Below, in pieces: positions 2,627-47,944 of a DNA stretch of 64,000 bases. Within the stretch, counting starts at the first letter, position 1. Every line of letters starts with the position of its first letter. The notes beneath the pieces were generated by a model. It had not been told where the DNA came from, did no database searches, and was given only the letters and a program-made list of their open reading frames with translations. The stretch is taken from the sequence record KC801932, one strand, 5' to 3'. The DNA is from Escherichia phage Lw1. Position numbers and translations under genes: made by a program.

Positions 2627-3148
2627 TCACGAACTCTCGCCGCGATGTTCGATGTGCTCCGTGATATCCTCAACAGTCTTATCAAGGTCCAGAGATTCAG
2701 CATCTTCCTTGATAATAGTCAAATCTACAGGCAGTGTCAACAGTCTTTTCACTCCGCTGATATCTTCGATACGAGAATCATACGCAAGGGTAACATGCGG
2801 TTTGTAGTTGTCAAAATCGTAAGTCGCTCCGGCATCCATCGCATCATTGAAACGGCTATGCAGATAATCAGACTCCAGAACACCGACGATAGTGTTACCG
2901 TATTTTGTGTCCCACTTCTCTACGTCAACCAGTCGGGCAGGTTCAGAGATACCAGAGGCAGGGAACAAATCAACCGTCTTACGGCTATACACAATCGTTG
3001 TATGAAGTTTTTCAGCAGACACCGGATTCTCTACACCCAGAAGTTTTTGCACTTGTGCAAGCGCTTCACAGGAAGCCTGATCGAACTTCGCACACATATA
3101 GATCCCCGAATCAACTACGGGTTTCGCAACTTCAATAAAACTTTTCAT
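2627..3148 (-). CDS. acb1: 2H phosphoesterase-fold protein, Acb1-like (anti-CBASS cyclic-oligonucleotide phosphodiesterase candidate; T4 gene 57B position)
   Basis: Two H-x-T motifs (HTTIV at His49, HVTLAY at His118) typical of 2H phosphoesterases; lies immediately next to 57A and gene 1 as 57B does in T4; SD GGAG before ATG 3148. Confidence 0.6.
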   Translation of the reverse strand: MKSFIEVAKPVVDSGIYMCAKFDQASCEALAQVQKLLGVENPVSAEKLHTTIVYSRKTVDLFPASGISEPARLVDVEKWDTKYGNTIVGVLESDYLHSRFNDAMDAGATYDFDNYKPHVTLAYDSRIEDISGVKRLLTLPVDLTIIKEDAESLDLDKTVEDITEHIEHRGESS

Positions 3149-4885: not shown

Positions 4886-4893
4886 AATAAATA
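4886..4893 (+). promoter_or_regulatory. late-promoter-like box AATAAATA (7/8 to T4 TATAAATA) followed by 8-bp palindrome ataggtat/atacctat
   Basis: Located ~40 nt upstream of internal-protein ATG 4932. Confidence 0.3.
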
Positions 4894-4931: not shown

Positions 4932-5717
4932 ATGAAATCATTCAAAGAACTACTGTCTGAATCTGTTCAGACCAAAAAATTTGCTAAAACTGTTGATCTG
5001 GTTGACCGTGGTAATGCTTCAAAAGGTCAGATCGGTTTCCTGCACTTTGCACACGGTGCTGATTACGATGTGTATGCGCCGGACTCTCACGATCTCGCCT
5101 ACTTCGGTAAAGGTGTTGTTCGCCTGAAAGGTAAAACCACTGGTAAAACTCAGGCTGCATATGTTGACTGGGCGAAAGGTACGGTTTCTTTCTATAGCGG
5201 CGATCCGGCAGATGACCTGAAATTCGACAAGCCAGCGAAATTCAAAGGCGCTTCCCTGTACAAAGAAGCCGAAGAAAATCTGGATCTGTATAATCAGTTA
5301 GCGGAAGACTTCGAAATTGATGTACCGATGGATGAAGCACTGGTGAAAGGTAAGGTGTACAAGCTCCCAAGCAACGATATGCGCTTGCTGTATACCGGAC
5401 GTACCAAAAACAAGCCTACAGGTGAATACGCTGTGTTTACGGTTGTAGATGCCTCCGGTAAGCCTCGTCTGGTATCGGGTAAACGATTTACCCAGGAATA
5501 CAAAGGCGATATGCTGTCTAAACTGGTTCTCGCTGAATCGGAAGATCTGAACGAGGCCGCTAAAGGCATTCGCGAAAAAGTTATTGCGGTGTTGGTGAAG
5601 CGCGGGTTTAACGAAAAAGATGCAGAAAAGATGGTTGATAAAAACCTAAAAGATGCGATGAAAGTTCGCCCTGGTGCAACTCCAGGAAAACTAGCGGAAA
5701 TCGTGAGCACCTTGTAA
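4932..5717 (+). CDS. internal head protein with capsid targeting sequence (IPIII-like, lysine-rich)
   Basis: N-terminus MKSFKELLSE matches T4 CTS consensus MKTYQEFIAE (gp21 protease-cleaved leader); basic K-rich body; start at ATG 4932 rather than ORF-track 4836. Confidence 0.65.
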   Translation: MKSFKELLSESVQTKKFAKTVDLVDRGNASKGQIGFLHFAHGADYDVYAPDSHDLAYFGKGVVRLKGKTTGKTQAAYVDWAKGTVSFYSGDPADDLKFDKPAKFKGASLYKEAEENLDLYNQLAEDFEIDVPMDEALVKGKVYKLPSNDMRLLYTGRTKNKPTGEYAVFTVVDASGKPRLVSGKRFTQEYKGDMLSKLVLAESEDLNEAAKGIREKVIAVLVKRGFNEKDAEKMVDKNLKDAMKVRPGATPGKLAEIVSTL

Positions 5718-34762: not shown

Positions 34763-35170
34763 ATGCAACTCGAACTCGAAGATATTAGTACCGAACTTAT
34801 CGAACCCCATTTAACCGAAGCGAAAGCCCGTGTTGATATTCTGGGGATTGATGAAGGTACAATTAAAATTATCGAAAATTTGGCGGTCGATGAACCTCAT
34901 TTGGCCCTGGCGATGATGTCCATTGTTGAGGGTTTGAGTTTAGATGAAGTCATTGTTAAACACGTCGATTCTCGCGGTAATGTGGAACGTAAAAAGGACC
35001 GCAAAACCCGTGAACGTAACGCGTATCAAACAACTGGTCTTACTAAATCTCAACGTCGCCAGATCGCGCGTCGTGCGATGAAAACAAAACGTGCGAATCC
35101 TTCTATTACAACCCGCGCACAACGTAAGCGCAAAAAAGCGCTCCGTAAACGCGCCGCATTAGGGCTATAA
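34763..35170 (+). CDS. 68: prohead core protein gp68
   Basis: 135 aa, basic C-terminus; synteny. Confidence 0.8.
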   Translation: MQLELEDISTELIEPHLTEAKARVDILGIDEGTIKIIENLAVDEPHLALAMMSIVEGLSLDEVIVKHVDSRGNVERKKDRKTRERNAYQTTGLTKSQRRQIARRAMKTKRANPSITTRAQRKRKKALRKRAALGL

Positions 35171-35172
35171 AT

Positions 35173-35820
35173 ATGAATGAATCCCAACTCAATGAAAACG
35201 GCGATATGCTGCTAATCGAGGAATGGGGTTTACCTTGTGCGGATATTTCCGATTCGATTTTAGAATCGGTCGGTGCGTCTAAAGACGGTAAACTTCGGAT
35301 TGAAGGTATTTTCCTACAGGCTGAAAAAGTAAACCGTAATAAACGACTGTACCCGAAAAAAGTATTAGAAGAAGCAGTAAATGATTATATCAGAACTCAA
35401 GTTAATACCCGTCAAGCACTGGGTGAAATGAATCACCCTCCGCGCCCGAATGTGGACCCGCGAAATGCTTGCATCCTCATTGAAAAAATGTGGTGGAAAG
35501 GTAATGACGTTTGGGGCCGTGCGGTTGTTGTCGAAGGTGACAACGCGGATGGTGATAAACTTGCGGCGTTAATTCGTGCTGGTTGGGTTCCTGGTGTTTC
35601 TTCTCGCGGACTAGGTAAACTTGCCGATTCCGGTAAAGGTTACGGTATCGTACAAGAAGGGTTTAAATTGGCTGTAGGTGTTGATGTAGTTTGGGGGCCA
35701 AGCGCTCCAGATGCTTACGTTAAACCAATAACCGAATCTCAGCAGACGAAACCGCTTGTTGAGAATATTAGTGCTGATGACGCTTTCAGAAAATTATCTG
35801 AACGTTTGAAAGGTCTATAA
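35173..35820 (+). CDS. 21: prohead core scaffold protease gp21
   Basis: 215 aa, synteny directly before gp22. Confidence 0.9.
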   Translation: MNESQLNENGDMLLIEEWGLPCADISDSILESVGASKDGKLRIEGIFLQAEKVNRNKRLYPKKVLEEAVNDYIRTQVNTRQALGEMNHPPRPNVDPRNACILIEKMWWKGNDVWGRAVVVEGDNADGDKLAALIRAGWVPGVSSRGLGKLADSGKGYGIVQEGFKLAVGVDVVWGPSAPDAYVKPITESQQTKPLVENISADDAFRKLSERLKGL

Positions 35821-35850: not shown

Positions 35851-36642
35851 ATGCTAAAAGAACAACTGTTGGCAGAAGCCCAGAACCTGGATACTCCAGT
35901 TGAGTTAGACAGCATTTTCGAATCAGTTGAACTTTCTGATGAAGTGAAAGCGAATTTCACCACTGTATTCGAACAAGCTGTAAAAGCTAACGCTGTAAAA
36001 CTCGCAGAATCCCATATCAATCAGATCGCGGAACGTTCCGATGAACTGGTTGAAGCCCAGGTTGCCGAAAAAGCTGGCGCAATCGAAACACAACTGTACG
36101 AAGATGCAAATAAATACTTCGACCACATCGCACAAGAATGGCTCTCAGAAAACAAAGAAGCCGTATCCCGCGATATTAAGGCCGACTTATTCGAATCTCT
36201 GGTTGCTGGTATGAAAGAATTGTTCGTTGATCACAACGTAATTATTCCAGAAGCCCAGGTTGATGTTGTTGCAGAACTCGAAGATGAACTGACCGAAAAT
36301 CAGCAGGAAGTTAAGCGCCTGTTTGAAGCGAATCAGGCTCAGGCTAAAGAGATCGCCAACATGAAACGCGATACAATCGTTTCAGAAAAAACCAAAGATT
36401 TAACCGAATCCCAGGTTGAGAAAGTTCAGAACCTGATCGAAGGTTTGGAATATTCCGACAAGTTCGAATCCAAACTGACCGCAATTGTCGAAATGGTAGC
36501 GACTAAAGCGGAAAAACAGGTTGACGAGAGTACAAATACTCAGACAACCACTAAAGACGATTTTGTTCCGGTAAATGAAAATGCTCCGGCAGAGAAATCG
36601 AAGATCAATAAATATGTTGAAGCGGCTAAACGCCTTTCCTAA
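35851..36642 (+). CDS. 22: prohead core scaffold protein gp22
   Basis: 263 aa acidic helical protein, synteny. Confidence 0.85.
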   Translation: MLKEQLLAEAQNLDTPVELDSIFESVELSDEVKANFTTVFEQAVKANAVKLAESHINQIAERSDELVEAQVAEKAGAIETQLYEDANKYFDHIAQEWLSENKEAVSRDIKADLFESLVAGMKELFVDHNVIIPEAQVDVVAELEDELTENQQEVKRLFEANQAQAKEIANMKRDTIVSEKTKDLTESQVEKVQNLIEGLEYSDKFESKLTAIVEMVATKAEKQVDESTNTQTTTKDDFVPVNENAPAEKSKINKYVEAAKRLS

Positions 36643-41017: not shown

Positions 41018-41248
41018 TTAAAACTTCTCTTCTTCTCCGGTTTCGAGTTCGGCTTTCAGTTCTTCTCGCCGTCCCTTGATCGCGTCACGCATTGAAATAT
41101 CATCGGATGCTGCGACCTCGACTTCTTTCACGCGTGTGTTGTAATACTTTTCAAGTTCTTTCAAACCGTCCAGTGTCCGGCACGAAGCAACCTTATTCAT
41201 GAAATCATCAATCGCGGCTTCGTTTACAAATTTGGTAAAACTTTTCAT
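41018..41248 (-). CDS. uvsW.1: UvsW.1 small helicase-associated protein
   Basis: 76 aa directly downstream of uvsW on the same strand. Confidence 0.75.
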   Translation of the reverse strand: MKSFTKFVNEAAIDDFMNKVASCRTLDGLKELEKYYNTRVKEVEVAASDDISMRDAIKGRREELKAELETGEEEKF

Positions 41249-43942: not shown

Positions 43943-44506
43943 ATGTTGAACCATGAATGTTTGAAAGATTTAAGTGACGGTAAAGAGATCGGGAACGTTA
44001 TATTTCTCGATATTGATGGAGTTCTAAATAATATGCGGTCTATGAAATTCGGTGAACATATGGACATCGAATGTGCGCGACACTTGCGCCGGATCGTGAA
44101 CCATGCAGATTGTGATATCGTTGTTTCTTCAACATGGCGTATAGGAAACACGACACACAACCTACGTGAAATTCTGTACCCCTGGGGGCTTTATCGCGTT
44201 ATCGGTCGAACTTGTAGTAATATGCAGGGTGCTTACCAACGTGGGGATGAAATCAAGGCATGGATCGACGCTTTCGGATGTAAGAATTATCTTATTCTGG
44301 ATGATGATCGCGACATGTTACAGGAACAGAATGAACACTTCATTCGAACCGATCCTTACATTGGGTTGACAGAAGAACAATCAACCTTTGCGATCCGTAA
44401 TATATTTGGAATAACGACCCCGTTTTGTCCTGAATGCAATGGCTACGGGCGCGTGAATGAATATGATAAATGCGGTAGCTGCAACGGTAAAATTTTACGT
44501 CTATAA
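43943..44506 (+). CDS. HAD-superfamily hydrolase with C-terminal zinc ribbon
   Basis: Motif I FLDIDGVL, motif ILDDD; C-terminal CPECNGYG...CGSCNGK. Confidence 0.6.
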   Translation: MLNHECLKDLSDGKEIGNVIFLDIDGVLNNMRSMKFGEHMDIECARHLRRIVNHADCDIVVSSTWRIGNTTHNLREILYPWGLYRVIGRTCSNMQGAYQRGDEIKAWIDAFGCKNYLILDDDRDMLQEQNEHFIRTDPYIGLTEEQSTFAIRNIFGITTPFCPECNGYGRVNEYDKCGSCNGKILRL

Positions 44507-44533
44507 ATATAGAAAAATTAAGAGGTTTCAACA

Positions 44534-45037
44534 ATGGCTACTGAAAAATGGACTACGGTTCACCCTATCCCGTGGCGTAATACCAGTTTTACCTATCTCC
44601 CGTGGTGGATCTTCGATATTATCGTTGCTGCTAATACGGCTGGTGATGACTGGCGAGGTTACGCCGAAGAAAAATATGCGAAAGAATTCGACACTCTGAA
44701 ACAGGCATACATCGATTATACCGATGTTGATTTCATCGAATCTCGCAACGGTTATCTGTATAAACTGAGTGATTTTACTCCTGCTGATCCTGTCGTAACA
44801 ATTACACCAAAAACCGCTCCTGCTGATTTCAAAGTAGGTGATGCTGACCTAGCTGCAACTGATCTGTTTACCATCGATCCTTCTGGTACAGCAATGACTC
44901 TGAGTGTTGACTCTTCCGGTCATGGTTCTATCGTTGGTGGTAAACTCCATGCGGTTAGTGAAGGTGATGTTGTCGTAACAGCAACCTCTGGATCTGTTAC
45001 TGCAACTCTGACGGTAAACGTTAAACCTGCACTATAA
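44534..45037 (+). CDS. hypothetical protein with C-terminal Ig-like (Big_2-type) region
   Basis: C-terminal beta-rich segment (VVTITPKTA...SVTATLTVNV); N-terminal YLPWWIFDII motif. Confidence 0.55.
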   Translation: MATEKWTTVHPIPWRNTSFTYLPWWIFDIIVAANTAGDDWRGYAEEKYAKEFDTLKQAYIDYTDVDFIESRNGYLYKLSDFTPADPVVTITPKTAPADFKVGDADLAATDLFTIDPSGTAMTLSVDSSGHGSIVGGKLHAVSEGDVVVTATSGSVTATLTVNVKPAL

Positions 45038-45054
45038 CAACTAAGAAGGTAAAA

Positions 45055-45555
45055 ATGCTGCTATTTGAATTCAATGATGTATTCGCAAAATTCAGCGATG
45101 CAATCGAAGCTAAATTTGGCAAACGTCCACAAAACATGACAGAAACAGAATATAACGATGCTGTTTCGTCCCTGGTTCGTACAGATTTCTATGAAAAGCT
45201 GGCGATCGAGGTTTTGGGCTGGGATATGATGAAATGGGGTATGACTTATCGCGATCGCGAAGTCGGTTTTATTCTCGTCAACGAAGTCAAAAGCCCGTCC
45301 TGGGTGAATAACCAGAAAATAGCATATATGGATAAAGTATGTGCGGAAATGGGGATTGTTCGACTGGACTTCTGGACTTGCCGTGATCTGAACGAACTGA
45401 AAGGTCACGCGTACCGTTGCCCGTTGATTTCTCGCAATGAGAAACACCGTCAAGCATGGGATAGCGCTGGGAAATATCGTAGCGTGTTCCTGAACGACGA
45501 CATTAACATCACTATTCAGGACGTGAATCGAGCGTTCACTGAATACCATCCATAA
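45055..45555 (+). CDS. NT5C/HAD-like protein with degenerate motif I
   Basis: Parallels the convergent neighbour 45588..46055 (shared TDFYE.L and LNDD/LIDD) but motif I reads FEFNDV instead of FDMDGV. Confidence 0.5.
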   Translation: MLLFEFNDVFAKFSDAIEAKFGKRPQNMTETEYNDAVSSLVRTDFYEKLAIEVLGWDMMKWGMTYRDREVGFILVNEVKSPSWVNNQKIAYMDKVCAEMGIVRLDFWTCRDLNELKGHAYRCPLISRNEKHRQAWDSAGKYRSVFLNDDINITIQDVNRAFTEYHP

Positions 45556-45560
45556 TAAAA

Positions 45561-45586
45561 AAGGGAACCGCAATGGTTCCCTTTCT
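45561..45586. terminator. hairpin terminator between convergent genes
   Basis: aagggaacc gcaat ggttccctt; T-run on minus strand side. Confidence 0.6.
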
Positions 45587-45587
45587 T

Positions 45588-46055
45588 CTAGGCTATTTTT
45601 CTTATTTCTTTCAAGGCTTCTTCTTTGCTTCCAACGAAGAGGATCGCTTTACCTCCGGCTTTTCTGAATGGCAACACGGCTTTTGCTCTGTCGTCTATCA
45701 GTATGCCCTGGCTCGCGTAGGCTGCTTTGTCTTTGCTGCTTTTGGTGTAGTGGAATTCAGGTAAGTATCCCAATTCTCTCAACAGCGCTTTTTTCTTCTG
45801 TTCTGCTACTTCTTCTGAATCATACTTCCCAACACTGGTCAAGATCGCAACCTGTCCCAATGTTTTCAGGTGGTGGAACAATTCAAACCCTTCTTTTAAA
45901 GGTTTCAGGTTTTCGTAGAAGTCGGTTTTTGCGATTGCTTGTTTAGCCTTTTTCAGTTCTTCTTCTGGCATTCTCGCCGGATCACCATACATCGGTATGA
46001 AAGAACCTTCCCAATCAAACAGTACACCATCCATATCAAAGAAAAACTTATTCAT
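45588..46055 (-). CDS. HAD-superfamily 5'(3')-deoxyribonucleotidase-like hydrolase
   Basis: Motif I FFDMDGVLFDW, motif ILIDD; start at ATG 46055 (MNKFFF...) with GAGGAA SD. Confidence 0.6.
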   Translation of the reverse strand: MNKFFFDMDGVLFDWEGSFIPMYGDPARMPEEELKKAKQAIAKTDFYENLKPLKEGFELFHHLKTLGQVAILTSVGKYDSEEVAEQKKKALLRELGYLPEFHYTKSSKDKAAYASQGILIDDRAKAVLPFRKAGGKAILFVGSKEEALKEIRKIA

Positions 46056-46104
46056 ATCAATTCCTCGCCTTGTGTGTGCATAATATTCATATATGTTCTC
46101 ATTG

Positions 46105-46938
46105 TCAACCCCATGTATCGGTTTTAGGTGCGTATGCTGCAACTTTAGCCACTAATTCCTTATCAAGCTGATCAATGGATTTCTGCGGTTTGCCTTTTGC
46201 CTTAACTTTGATGTAATTAGACTTGACAACGAACATACCGCCTTTGTCGGATTTCTTAACTTCGCTATCAATACCAACTTTGTTAAAGCTGATCCAGATG
46301 TCACCATCCATGTACTGTTTCAGAGAATCGCCCATGTTAAGGATCTTAGCCATAGTAAGCGCGGCCCCTTCGTGGGTATCCATGAGGATCTCTTTTGGAA
46401 CAACACGGTCGCGTTTCAGGTTCTGCTGCATGGCAATATGAACATCGTTCATTACCCAAACGATATGGATGTTTTCTTTCTTGTACCCCAGCGCTTCAAC
46501 ATCACGGGCGATACTTGCCAGTTTGCTCATGCTTTTCAGGGTTACGTCAAAAATCAGGTTTGGTTTGCGATCTTCCGGTGCTGCTGCGATACCAGCATAA
46601 ACACGCGCCTGGTTTTTGTTTGATACGTTGAAAACGTCTGCGATCACATGGTGAAGTGTTGCAACGTTATCAGGGTTTTTCAGGTTCATTGTTTTAACGT
46701 CATGACCTGTTTTTGCTTTAATTTCTGCTGCTAGTTTGGTGCTACCCATTACCAGCTTTTTCAATGCGTCAACGTCCAGTGTGATCCCTTCGATGCCTAA
46801 CAGCTTTTCGAGAGTGAAGCCTTTACCGGAACCCGCACCGCCAGCCAGGATCACGACCTGACCGAATTTCTGATAAGCCTTACCGCCGAAGGTAATCAGC
46901 GCTTCATCAAGGCTCACAAAGTCTTTGAATGATTTCAT
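46105..46938 (-). CDS. protein with CTS-like N-terminus and glycine-rich nucleotide-binding loop (candidate packaged P-loop enzyme)
   Basis: N-terminus MKSFKDFVSLDEA resembles capsid targeting sequence; VVILAGGAGSGKGFT loop; GGAG SD. Confidence 0.6.
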   Translation of the reverse strand: MKSFKDFVSLDEALITFGGKAYQKFGQVVILAGGAGSGKGFTLEKLLGIEGITLDVDALKKLVMGSTKLAAEIKAKTGHDVKTMNLKNPDNVATLHHVIADVFNVSNKNQARVYAGIAAAPEDRKPNLIFDVTLKSMSKLASIARDVEALGYKKENIHIVWVMNDVHIAMQQNLKRDRVVPKEILMDTHEGAALTMAKILNMGDSLKQYMDGDIWISFNKVGIDSEVKKSDKGGMFVVKSNYIKVKAKGKPQKSIDQLDKELVAKVAAYAPKTDTWG

Positions 46939-46970
46939 TTTAGAACTCCAGGGTTATTTTAATATATTTA

Positions 46971-47000
46971 TTGACATCGTTTTGCTGATGGATTTATAGT
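46971..47000 (+). promoter_or_regulatory. sigma70-type promoter (TTGACA - 18 nt - TATAGT)
   Basis: In divergent intergenic region upstream of ORF 47051. Confidence 0.45.
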
Positions 47001-47050: not shown

Positions 47051-47944
47051 ATGAAACTTGAATTAAACCGCTTCATCAAAGCCGCTGCTGCTGGCGACCA
47101 GTCAAAATATACATCACGCCGCAACCACACATTGTCAAACGATTTCGCTGACCTGCTTGGGTTCAAGCGCTGGCATACTCCGGTTATGCGTCCCGACTGC
47201 GATCCTAAATGGGATTACTTTCGTTGGAGTATTCCCAAACATGCCATTGTGAAAAAGATCCGTGTGATGTCTTTCCGTTTTCTGTATCCTAACTGTATCA
47301 TCGAAATCGCAAAAGAACGAGATATCACCCTCCCTAATGGTTGGAAACTTGCTGACCTGATGGAAACACTGATCCAGATGCGTAGAGAATACAAAGCTGG
47401 ATACATCCGTTCCTTTGATAAGTTGGGTGATTACTCAGACAGCGATAATTACAAAGAATGGCAAATGATCGCAAAGTACCTGTTAAACAGCATATGGATT
47501 ATTATTTGCGGCAAAGGTTCTGCGATCAACCTGGGAGGTCATGAAATTATTGCCCGTGCTCGCGAAAAGGTTTGTGATGCGGTAAACAAAATCATTTCTT
47601 CAGGTGGCGTTGTTCTGCATGTAAACGTTGACGAAATCGTGTATTACGGCGAACAGGTGGAAGTTGATAATGTCCATCATGAAAAACACTGGAAAGCTAT
47701 TTTTACTGGTGGCGGTGCTGCATGGGGTGATAATATGATAACAAGTGGCCCCATTCCAACGATTAAATTTGACCTTGATGACTGGGAACCGCAAAACAAC
47801 GGTATTCGTTCGGTCGAGGAACAACGCGCAATGGCTGAACGTATGGCTGCAACGCGAATCAAACGTTTCACCAATGAAATCATAGAGTATATGAACCGCA
47901 CAAAAGAAGACGTGTTGAAAGATGTTGACTTGTCCGGTGAATAA
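47051..47944 (+). CDS. hypothetical protein (297 aa)
   Basis: ORF track; promoter upstream. Confidence 0.6.
   Translation: MKLELNRFIKAAAAGDQSKYTSRRNHTLSNDFADLLGFKRWHTPVMRPDCDPKWDYFRWSIPKHAIVKKIRVMSFRFLYPNCIIEIAKERDITLPNGWKLADLMETLIQMRREYKAGYIRSFDKLGDYSDSDNYKEWQMIAKYLLNSIWIIICGKGSAINLGGHEIIARAREKVCDAVNKIISSGGVVLHVNVDEIVYYGEQVEVDNVHHEKHWKAIFTGGGAAWGDNMITSGPIPTIKFDLDDWEPQNNGIRSVEEQRAMAERMAATRIKRFTNEIIEYMNRTKEDVLKDVDLSGE

Follow-up and report, generated by a model that had tools for sequence, protein, structure and literature searches.

Analysis of a 64,000-nucleotide stretch of DNA (the window) from Escherichia phage Lw1 (KC801932), an RB43-like T4-type phage, revealed a gene for a zeta/AvrRxo1-like P-loop kinase that carries a candidate capsid-targeting leader at its N terminus. 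The reading that we favor, with somewhat better than even confidence, is that of a late-expressed kinase that is targeted by its leader, packaged in the head, cut by gp21, and injected, and that acts on a nucleotide-type small molecule. We infer the packaging, cleavage, and injection of the kinase, and likewise its late transcription in vivo and its substrate. The gene (46105..46938, minus strand) starts with ATG, encodes 277 amino acids, and is the orthologue of RB43ORF241c, CfP1 gp121, and KP27_252. An earlier note made from the sequence alone had placed an open reading frame here, with the N terminus MKSFKDFVSLDEA and the loop VVILAGGAGSGKGFT (GGAGSGKG); both are as described, and the strand, absent from that note, is minus.

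In the proposed course of events, the gene would be transcribed from a gp55-type late promoter (cAATAAATA), and the 12-residue leader (MKSFKDFVSLDE) of its product would bind the gp22 scaffolding core, by which the protein would be built into the prohead. The gp21 prohead protease would then cut after L10-D11-E12, and the basic 28.9-kDa mature kinase would stay with the DNA and be ejected with the genome into the next host. There, with ATP from the host, it would phosphorylate a hydroxyl group on a small molecule of the nucleotide type; the candidate substrates are NAD or an ADP-ribose derivative, by analogy with AvrRxo1, and a UDP-sugar, by analogy with zeta/PezT. The cell would be conditioned, or its defense blunted, ahead of any phage gene expression.

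Kinase fold, active site, and family

Searching Pfam with the 277-amino-acid protein gave a single match above the gathering score, PF06414 (Zeta_toxin; 32.8 bits versus a gathering score of 22.3; E = 6.2e-8), and no fused MuF, portal, or polyvalent module. A precomputed PF06414 match was present on nearly all homologues listed. Neither the protein nor the family profile gave a significant match in searches of PDB sequences. A PHROG match to a "head maturation protease" family (E = 6e-4) was too weak and was discarded. Fold similarity to AvrRxo1-ORF1 was found; similarity to the Pnkp fold is real but ranked below zeta and AvrRxo1. The nucleotide-binding body proposed in the earlier note is that of a P-loop enzyme with a zeta-toxin/AvrRxo1 kinase fold, a fold that had been named there for checking.

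Comparison of the conserved residues with those of zeta toxin by hhalign revealed the elements of a P-loop kinase active site. The Walker A motif, G33-G-A-G-S-G-K39-G40 (46819..46842, minus strand), aligns with zeta GGQPGSGKT, and in an alignment of 59 homologues G33, G34, G38, and K39 are invariant and G40 is at least 90% conserved. The glycine after the Walker lysine had been noted as a departure from the usual Ser/Thr. The observation is true, but the residue is not anomalous, being conserved in the family and present in the GKG loop of an active adenylate kinase (E. coli 1AKE, GAPGAGKGT). A candidate catalytic base lies about 20 residues past the Walker A loop, in D55-V-D57 (46768..46776, minus strand), in which all three residues are invariant; D57 is aligned to D67 of the zeta motif IDND, and GGAGSGK39 and D57 together align with GGQPGSGK46 and D67 of the verified zeta sequence. 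The putative Walker-B/substrate-binding motif, D131-V-T133-L-K135 (46534..46548, minus strand), matches zeta E116-G-T118-G-R120. Compared with the zeta E-G-T-x-R, the acidic residue, the threonine, and the basic residue are kept, but Val stands in place of Gly and Lys in place of Arg. Conservation is complete for D131 and T133 and at least 90% for K135. R176-x-R178 (46405..46413, minus strand), invariant in the 59-sequence alignment, may supply lid arginines, as judged from P-loop kinase architecture.

The zeta/PezT enzymes (UDP-GlcNAc 3'-kinases; PDB 1gvn, 3q8x, and 2p5t) resemble the kinase in PF06414 score, P-loop, catalytic Asp, and the [E/D]-x-T-x-[R/K] motif. They differ from it in overall sequence (13 to 16% identity), in having GKT where the kinase has GKG and Arg where its substrate motif has Lys, and in lacking the extra C-terminal beta-sheet region of the kinase (residues about 214 to 246). 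AvrRxo1, the Xanthomonas type III NAD/NAAD 3'-kinase effector (PDB 4z8q), is 12% identical to the kinase; it has a T3SS signal and an ORF2 chaperone/antitoxin partner, whereas the kinase has a candidate phage-head leader and no partner.

The Pfam family name raises the question of whether the protein is a dead or toxin-like remnant, that is, the zeta toxin of a toxin-antitoxin (TA) or exclusion module or a structural head pseudokinase. The Vibrio schizoT4 homologue, with a degenerate P-loop and a 250-amino-acid C-terminal extension, fits such a reading, and some lineages may lack catalysis. In the main family, however, the catalytic positions are all invariant, and inteins target the P-loop: in several homologues, they sit exactly in it. 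The P-loop is the kind of site that inteins typically occupy. The 613-amino-acid "fusion" protein of PTm5 was rejected as a functional fusion; it is an intein inside the P-loop. Furthermore, no epsilon/PezA-type antitoxin gene is adjacent to the kinase gene, whose neighbors are a HAD phosphatase gene and a divergent gene. The family, which falls into about 1,100 clusters when grouped at 50% identity, is restricted to phages and is nearly absent from bacterial chromosomes: among 185,579 genomes, 13 loci were found, on contigs of phage size. A remnant is therefore very improbable. Because there is no antitoxin neighbor and the family is phage restricted, the kinase is not a TA toxin, although it may still act like a zeta kinase.

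In distant homologues, the kinase is joined to a HIGH nucleotidyltransferase of the cytidylyltransferase-like type, to NUDIX, or to an HD phosphohydrolase, and BFVD matches include multidomain phage proteins of 900 to 1,500 amino acids with the kinase domain. These fusion partners point to a small nucleotide substrate, and those with HIGH-type nucleotidyltransferase and NUDIX may be an indirect hint of AvrRxo1-type NAD activity. They suit equally well a different reading, which we regard as possible but clearly short of an even chance: a cytoplasmic enzyme that is never packaged and serves nucleotide, NAD, or nucleotide-sugar metabolism, perhaps by salvaging cofactors, activating sugars, or modifying DNA or virions. 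The N-terminal segment would then be a flexible arm with another role or a favorable translation-initiation region. As for homology to a housekeeping enzyme, which the earlier note had asked about, the family is confined to phages and an NCBIfam search with the kinase gave no match; yet the fusion partners and some neighbors are nucleotide-metabolism domains.

The N-terminal leader and a sibling gene

The candidate capsid-targeting propeptide comprises residues 1 to 12 (46903..46938, minus strand), ends in the gp21-type cleavage motif L10-D11-E12, and is followed by A; the predicted mature N terminus is A13 (ALITFGGK...). The capsid-targeting sequence of T4 is a propeptide of 10 to 20 residues in which aromatic or hydrophobic residues at positions 4 and 7 determine targeting and an L/I-x-E serves for processing (PMC9026906). 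The kinase leader agrees with these published sequence requirements in that its fourth and seventh residues are aromatic and it ends in an L/I-x-E site for gp21, which bears out its description as a leader of this type. The T4 leaders, read from NC_000866, are MKTYQEFIAE|A in IPII/IPIII and MKTFKEFTSTTTPVSTITE|A (MKTFKEF..ITE|A) in IPI; at positions 4 and 7, the kinase has F4 and F7, IPIII has Y4 and F7, and IPI has F4 and F7. With its putative gp21 motif and the small residue A13 after it, the kinase leader matches the T4 internal-protein targeting sequences closely.

Among the 59 homologues, which represent the closer members of the family, E12 is invariant, F4 and L14 are at least 90% conserved, and the leader contains a variable linker of 0 to 15 residues. 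The leader length differs across the family clusters, and of the 93 representatives at 50% identity, 83 carry an L/I-x-E motif ahead of the P-loop. Disorder is predicted in the leader (pLDDT below 50 at residues 1 to 3 and 8 to 10). A leader that is conserved in its amino acids (F4 and L-x-E), yet variable in length and predicted to be disordered, is not expected of an effect on translation only or of an element of the fold, which argues against a cytoplasmic enzyme. The invariance of E12 could nevertheless be structural rather than a cleavage signal because the glutamate of the L-x-E runs directly into the conserved core E-[A/K]-L-I-T-F-G. L10-D11-E12 is the sole L/I-x-E site in the whole kinase. 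The predicted mature kinase is basic (pI 9.46; T4 internal proteins have pI values of 9.0 to 9.65).

The likeness of this leader to that of the protein encoded at position 4932, which had been pointed out previously, is beyond chance, and the first 17 nucleotides of the two genes are identical. The sibling gene (4932..5717, plus strand) encodes the leader MKSFKELLSE followed by S and is preceded by AATAAATA at 4886-4893. Apart from the kinase, no protein of this genome type except the product of this gene combines a leader, an L-x-E, and a late motif. In the 180-kb genome of CfP1, a close relative, only six open reading frames fit a loose N-terminal pattern, and only the orthologues of the kinase and of the 4932 gene combine this pattern with an L-x-E at positions 8 to 12 and a late-promoter-like motif. 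The RefSeq annotation of CfP1 contains no internal protein or Alt, and the two leader-bearing proteins could fill this role. An MKSF start is also found on UvsW.1 and Acb1/57B in the window, and T4 57B starts with MMEFKDF. None of UvsW.1, Acb1, and T4 57B is known to be a virion protein. A virion protein can therefore not be told by its first four to seven residues alone, in keeping with a cytoplasmic enzyme.

Two lines of evidence on packaging were followed. No virion proteomics for phages carrying the kinase gene was found in the literature: virion mass spectrometry is absent from the papers on KP15/KP27, vB_EcRAM-01, and phiEap-3, the ValerieMcCarty phages belong to Jiaodavirus, and none of these sources has data on the kinase protein. 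In addition, a protein present in the prohead together with an active protease should be depleted of internal L/I-x-E sites. In the close subfamily, the observed/shuffled ratio of internal L/I-x-E was 0.45, the lowest of the motifs tested, with L/I-x-D enriched 1.65-fold; this value may be due to chance. Across the 93 representatives at 50% identity, there was no depletion (ratio of 1.01). The test for depletion of internal cleavage sites is negative, and this result favors a cytoplasmic enzyme.

Promoters and genomic context

Inspection of the upstream region revealed the late-promoter-like motif AATAAATA (46965..46972, minus strand), which matches T4 TATAAATA at seven of eight positions and lies about 26 nucleotides 5' of the ATG. 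The predicted transcription start is near 46959, and a Shine-Dalgarno sequence, GGAG (46946..46949, minus strand), was read 8 to 11 nucleotides before the ATG. The cAATAAATA variant is also found upstream of gp23, inh, gp2, and the 4932 gene. The motif upstream of the kinase gene is kept in RB43, CfP1, Olmo, and KP27, and upstream of the Aeromonas phage 65 homologue lies CCTAAATA, which is the late consensus of the Aeh1 type. No sigma70 promoter was found upstream of the kinase gene, whose upstream neighbor is divergent. The promoter context of the kinase gene thus appears, from its sequence, to be of the late type. In T4-type phages, genes for metabolism usually belong to the early or middle class. 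The lack of a sigma70 promoter, together with a late motif common to head genes, speaks against a cytoplasmic enzyme.

In RB43, this variant counts as a late promoter: Nolan et al. allowed A or T at -13 and called it upstream of gp2 and of ORF200w, the orthologue of the 4932 gene. Their late-promoter HMM called no site upstream of RB43ORF241c, a result in line with a cytoplasmic enzyme, and late promoters were found only ahead of orthologues of T4 late genes (Nolan et al.).

Two sigma70 promoters flank this region. The first, TTGACA-17-TATTAT (46080..46108, minus strand), lies at the 3' end of the kinase gene and drives the HAD gene, not the kinase gene; its equivalents are the RB43 early promoter Pe:144934 (Nolan et al.) and an annotated promoter in KP27. 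The second, TTGACA-18-TATAGT (46971..47000, plus strand), serves the divergent 47051 gene and has an annotated equivalent in KP27; its -35 box overlaps part of the kinase late motif on the opposite strand.

The downstream gene (45588..46055, minus strand) encodes an NT5C-like HAD phosphatase (PHROG 2643, Pfam NT5C). In RB43-like phages, the kinase gene lies among three HAD phosphatase genes, which could be taken to indicate a cytoplasmic enzyme, as could the neighbors of two distant homologues (L014 and L015), an HD hydrolase and a heptose-1-phosphate adenylyltransferase-like enzyme, and the NAMPT, cytidyltransferase, and nudix genes elsewhere in the CfP1 genome. The adjacent HAD gene, however, has a separate early promoter and does not accompany the kinase gene consistently, being absent beside the homologues in Aeromonas phage 65, PTm5, and Vibrio PVA23. 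For the same reasons, the HAD phosphatase was rejected as an obligate partner in a Pnkp-like arrangement. Two further homologues (L019 and L020; 33 to 35% identical) lie inside a baseplate operon, which also speaks for a packaged rather than a cytoplasmic enzyme.

The same neighborhood suggests a second polynucleotide 5'-kinase, which would act with the HAD phosphatases and RNA ligase 2 as a split T4 Pnkp in the repair of tRNA or mRNA cut by host anticodon nucleases. A HAD_SAK_2 gene (RNA-repair-type HAD) is located at 43943-44506, NT5C-like HAD genes flank the kinase gene, rnlB is a few genes away, and one GenBank record (H50) names the orthologue a polynucleotide kinase. This genome type, however, already has a canonical full-length Pnkp (CfP1 gp070, 295 amino acids, beside RnlA), and the best structural matches, the Pfam match, and the E/D-x-T-x-R/K motif of the kinase are of the zeta/AvrRxo1 type. 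Its fusion partners are small-molecule nucleotide enzymes, not ligases. Compared with T4 and bacterial Pnkp, the kinase is neither fused to nor coregulated with the HAD gene. Taken together, these findings make a role in RNA repair unlikely.

For a packaged and injected kinase, the head-assembly genes are at hand. The window contains genes for gp21, gp22, gp67/68-like, gp23, and gp24, including PHROG matches to a head maturation protease (35173-35820) and to scaffolding proteins (34763-35170 and 35851-36642). Its gp23 keeps L-A-E65 followed by A at the site of T4 gp23 cleavage. The kinase gene adjoins hoc/inh in RB43-like phages and hoc-1 in phage 65 and follows gp24/gp55 in Vibrio phages. Conserved neighbors in distant loci were not detectable by tblastn, and PHROG profiling was used instead.

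Relation to known injected proteins

The closest precedent for the leader is found in T4 IPI, IPII, and IPIII, which share with the kinase the leader M-K-[S/T]-[F/Y]-x-[D/E]-F, then L/I-x-E and A (Mullaney and Black, 1996; PMC9026906), as well as gp21/gp22 genes, a late-type promoter motif, a basic mature protein, and a position in variable regions near head genes. They differ in being small and nonenzymatic, whereas the kinase is a 29-kDa enzyme whose P-loop kinase active site is apparently complete; beyond the leader, the sequences show no similarity, and the spacer in the kinase is two residues longer than that in IPIII.

As enzyme cargo, which the kinase would be if packaged as we infer, T4 Alt is comparable: it is processed by gp21 at L/I-x-E and encoded near structural genes. 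The association of alt with baseplate genes (Iyer et al.; PMC5512222) is paralleled by the kinase homologues in baseplate operons. The two differ in fold and chemistry (ADP-ribosylation versus phosphotransfer) and in target, which is a protein for Alt and probably a small molecule for the kinase. The Alt leader is unlike that of the kinase, the protein being cut at ITE-6 and also at its C terminus.

The suggestion that an injected nucleotide-binding enzyme would be unusual was overstated, since T4 Alt is injected and zeta-like kinases in MuF head proteins and polyvalent proteins are predicted to be packaged and injected (Iyer et al. 2017; PMC5512222). The resemblance to these MuF-fused kinases is functional only: the kinase described here stands alone, with no MuF or portal fusion, would use a short cleavable T4-type leader, and belongs to another phage lineage (Straboviridae-like, with a gp21/gp22 core).

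As a tentative and rather doubtful extension, the phage-only family as a whole may be a class of injected T4-type kinases that are loaded by their leaders and act in the first seconds of infection. They would phosphorylate NAD, ADP-ribose-derived, or other nucleotide immune signals or a cell wall precursor and would thereby preempt NAD-depletion or signaling defenses or local envelope repair. If this is true, Alt would no longer be the only enzyme shown to accompany T4-type DNA, and virion delivery of a small-molecule kinase would be a first.

Injected proteins precede phage gene expression and are therefore prime counterdefense candidates. In the T4 group, those with known function are IPI*, a small inhibitor, and Alt, an ADP-ribosyltransferase; the roles of IPII and IPIII are unsolved. 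IPI* inhibits GmrSD. The kinase family is widespread in Klebsiella, Enterobacter, Cronobacter, and Citrobacter phages that are therapeutic candidates, in which its members are nearly always annotated as hypothetical and occasionally as zeta toxin. The zeta toxin label could raise safety flags in phage therapy screening, so the function of the kinase is practically useful to know. If the kinase is packaged, the T4 leader system would deliver a wider enzymatic cargo than has been recognized, and the kinase would be a phage counterpart of the type III effector AvrRxo1.

Distribution of the kinase family

Lw1 is an RB43-like T4-type myovirus whose nearest records are the Citrobacter phages Xman, CfP1, and Miller (89 to 92% nucleotide identity). 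The predicted kinase is encoded at positions 46105 to 46938 (minus strand) by an open reading frame of 277 amino acids (aa) with an ATG start preceded by a GGAG Shine-Dalgarno sequence. The earlier note had placed at this locus a protein with the N terminus MKSFKDFVSLDEALITFGG and the loop VVILAGGAGSGKGFT, and reading of the sequence confirmed both. The protein is 98 to 99% identical to "hypothetical proteins" of RB43 (ORF241c), CfP1 (gp121), GAP161, and others, and 89% identical to the Slopekvirus orthologue KP27_252. Identity amounts to ~56% for Aeromonas phage 65 p142, 51% for Tenacibaculum phage PTm5, and ~25% for a Vibrio schizoT4 protein. In the literature searched, no paper describes such a kinase; the sole mention encountered was a weak Pfam match given for RB43ORF241c in 2006.

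This is a large, phage-restricted family: a word-indexed search yielded 2,457 proteins, and a full HMM scan yielded 1,128 clusters at 50% identity. Only 13 loci were found among 185,579 bacterial and archaeal genomes, nearly all on MAG contigs as big as phage genomes; one of them encodes a protein 98% identical to the query. The assembly of a Flagellimonas marina isolate includes a 178,077-bp contig (L012; NZ_JBHSCL010000010.1), as long as a full RB43-type genome, that holds an RB43-like phage region with a 98% identical kinase and an unchanged order of hoc, inh, and uvsW. Since RB43-like phages are enterobacterial, this contig is probably a contamination of the marine flavobacterium assembly. 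A contig (L019; NZ_JAHENT010000093.1) assigned to a MAG labelled Methanohalobium sp. carries a kinase homologue along with baseplate genes of the T4 type (gp5 hub/lysozyme, PAAR, gp6 wedge); its placement with an archaeon is most likely a binning artefact.

Active site and candidate substrates

The kinase matched Pfam Zeta_toxin with 32.8 bits (curated threshold, 22.3) and fell into a full-length PHROG family of unknown function; NCBIfam and PDB sequence searches revealed no match. The family profile was compared with a zeta toxin sequence that had first been verified against annotated plasmid genes. GGAGSGK39 aligned with GGQPGSGK46, D57 with the catalytic D67, and D131-V-T133-L-K135 with E116-G-T118-G-R120. 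These three motifs, together with R124-K-P-N127, R176, R178, and H189, show complete or almost complete conservation across the family. The glycine following the Walker lysine, which the earlier note had flagged as an oddity, is conserved in at least 90% of the homologues and is the normal state in adenylate kinase (1AKE; GAPGAGKGT); its presence thus does not speak against catalysis.

In several homologues, inteins with Hint and homing-endonuclease domains are inserted exactly within the Walker A loop (GGAG/C...intein...N/SGKGF). The usual intein site is an indispensable catalytic motif. Intein-bearing homologues include L005:2400-4241 (Tenacibaculum phage PTm5 ORF-187), P0129, P0164, P0190, and L018:2714-4807; some inteins are full size with homing-endonuclease domains, one is a mini-intein, and the profile match of at least ten family representatives is interrupted at one shared position (~36). 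A dead or toxin-like remnant, to which the Zeta_toxin match could point, is very improbable given the conserved motifs. The schizoT4 homologue PVA23_272 of a Vibrio phage (L006:3492-4937; 481 aa) has a leader-like start (MLGNFDSFLSE/N), a degenerate P-loop (VELGTASTEFSKGKG), and a C-terminal extension of ~250 aa without a Pfam match; this protein is possibly a pseudokinase derivative.

In rare fusions, the kinase is linked to a cytidylyltransferase-like HIGH nucleotidyltransferase, a NUDIX domain, or an HD phosphohydrolase, and an HD hydrolase and a heptose-1-phosphate adenylyltransferase-like enzyme are encoded nearby at two homologue loci (L014 and L015). Because of these associations and the zeta/AvrRxo1-type motif pattern, a small nucleotide, cofactor, or nucleotide-sugar would be favored as substrate over polynucleotide ends. 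The location near rnlB would also suit a second polynucleotide kinase, a reading that we regard as improbable; this genome type already encodes a canonical Pnkp beside RnlA (CfP1 gp070).

Gene neighborhood and late-type expression signals

In RB43-like and Slopekvirus genomes, the kinase gene is located in the inh-hoc region, with head genes on one side and srd/rnlB on the other. The homologue of Aeromonas phage 65 lies directly upstream of hoc-1, and that of Vibrio schizoT4 phages follows the gp24 and gp55 genes. In the very distant loci L019 and L020 (33 to 35% identity), the homologue is part of a baseplate operon on the same strand (wedge subunit, tail protein, kinase, gp5 hub/lysozyme, PAAR, gp6 wedge); Iyer et al. 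pointed out the same sort of baseplate-gene association for the packaged T4 enzyme Alt (PMC5512222). Three HAD-superfamily phosphatase genes cluster at 43943 to 46055: a HAD_SAK_2 domain of the RNA-repair type in fusion with a DnaJ-type zinc finger (43943 to 44506, plus strand) and a convergent pair of NT5C-like paralogues (45055 to 45555, plus; 45588 to 46055, minus). Comparison of distant homologue loci revealed that the HAD phosphatase downstream of the kinase is not a conserved partner.

No sigma70 promoter was found upstream of the kinase in its direction of transcription. Just one strong site exists on the minus strand (TTGACA-17-TATTAT, 46108 to 46080); located at the kinase 3' end, it serves the downstream HAD gene and is equivalent to the RB43 early promoter Pe:144934 (Nolan et al.). 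A strong sigma70 promoter (TTGACA-18-TATAGT, 46971 to 47000, plus strand) drives the divergent gene at 47051 to 47944 (plus strand; 297 aa, PHROG 7439, unknown function), the product of which has no Pfam match. Its L012 orthologue is only 51% identical, compared to 72 to 98% for flanking genes, and the gene is therefore evolving fast.

The motif cAATAAATA lies ~26 nt upstream of the kinase ATG and matches the T4 late promoter TATAAATA at 7 of 8 positions; the -13 position is "either A or T" in these phages (Nolan et al.). Of the eight AATAAATA sites in the window, five are followed at a distance of 20 to 60 nt by a ribosome-binding site with its start codon, namely those of the genes for gp23 (major capsid protein), Inh, gp2, the 4932 protein, and the kinase. 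The published RB43 late-promoter calls Pl:103833 and Pl:105452 (Nolan et al.) are exactly cAATAAATA motifs, upstream of ORF200w (the 4932 orthologue) and gp2. The kinase motif is conserved in RB43, CfP1, Olmo, and KP27, and upstream of the Aeromonas phage 65 homologue lies CCTAAATA, which is the divergent consensus for late promoters of Aeromonas phage Aeh1 (Nolan et al.). The HMM late-promoter calls of Nolan et al. include no site upstream of ORF241c, and the conserved block partly coincides with the -35 box of the oppositely oriented promoter that drives the 47051 gene.

Leader and predicted head packaging

T4 IPII and IPIII start with MKTYQEFIAE/A and IPI with MKTFKEFTSTTTPVSTITE/A (slashes in leader sequences mark known or candidate cleavage sites), as read from the T4 genome. 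IPIII residues 1 to 10 are sufficient for packaging, with targeting information at positions 4 and 7 and processing at 8 and 10; the gp21 protease cleaves after L/I-X-E (PMC9026906). The kinase leader has F4, F7, and L10-D11-E12/A13. Family members differ in leader sequence and in leader length (~7 to ~35 residues); the pattern is usually M-x-[S/T]-F-x-x-[F/Y], and in 87 of 93 representatives the leader ends in hydrophobic-x-E leading into [A/K]-L-[I/V]-T-F-G. E12 is invariant in a 59-sequence alignment. In the structure model, pLDDT was below 50 for residues 1 to 10, which suggests that the conserved leader is not part of the fold.

The 4932 protein (4932 to 5717, plus strand; PHROG 7322, unknown function), encoded between gene 3 and gene 2, starts with MKSFKELLSE/S, with exactly the T4 spacing, and its AATAAATA lies at 4886 to 4893. 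It comprises 261 aa versus 202 aa for RB43 ORF200w; the additional C-terminal stretch corresponds to a PHROG of its own (9411). Upstream of ORF200w, an early as well as a late promoter has been predicted (Nolan et al.). In RB43-type phages, the 4932 protein possibly serves as the main internal protein.

Only six open reading frames in the 180-kb CfP1 genome show even the N-terminal part of the leader pattern, and only the kinase and 4932-protein orthologues combine it with L-x-E at positions 8 to 12 and an upstream late-type motif. The window encodes the processing machinery (gp21 protease, gp22 and gp68-like scaffold proteins, gp23, gp24), and its gp23 orthologue retains L-A-E65/A, the position at which gp23 of T4 is cut. 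The predicted mature kinase (28.9 kDa, pI 9.46) would have a charge akin to that of T4 internal proteins.

Several observations count against packaging. MKSF also begins UvsW.1 and Acb1 in the window, MMEFKDF begins T4 57B, and the invariant Glu12 could be structural. Internal L/I-x-E sites are not depleted in the broad family (ratio, 1.01); the ratio is 0.45 in the close subfamily, and the Lw1 kinase has no such site other than that at residue 12. The main rival, an unpackaged cytoplasmic nucleotide-metabolism enzyme, would fit these observations; we consider it rather unlikely in view of the leader pattern and the late-type motif. UvsW.1 (41018 to 41248, minus strand; MKSFTKFVNE/AA) and Acb1/57B (2627 to 3148, minus strand; MKSFIEVAKP) are both encoded by genes beginning with ATGAAAAGTTTTA, and their MKSF may reflect shared 5' cassettes, translation preference, or unexpected packaging.

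The literature search revealed no mass spectrometry of virions for any phage that carries the kinase gene. Packaging mediated by a targeting leader and the injected enzyme Alt are already known, and injection of MuF-fused zeta-like kinases has been predicted (PMC5512222). For the Lw1 protein, we lean slightly toward a zeta/AvrRxo1-like small-molecule kinase that would be expressed late, directed into the prohead by a targeting leader of the T4 type, cleaved by gp21 behind E12, and ejected together with the DNA.
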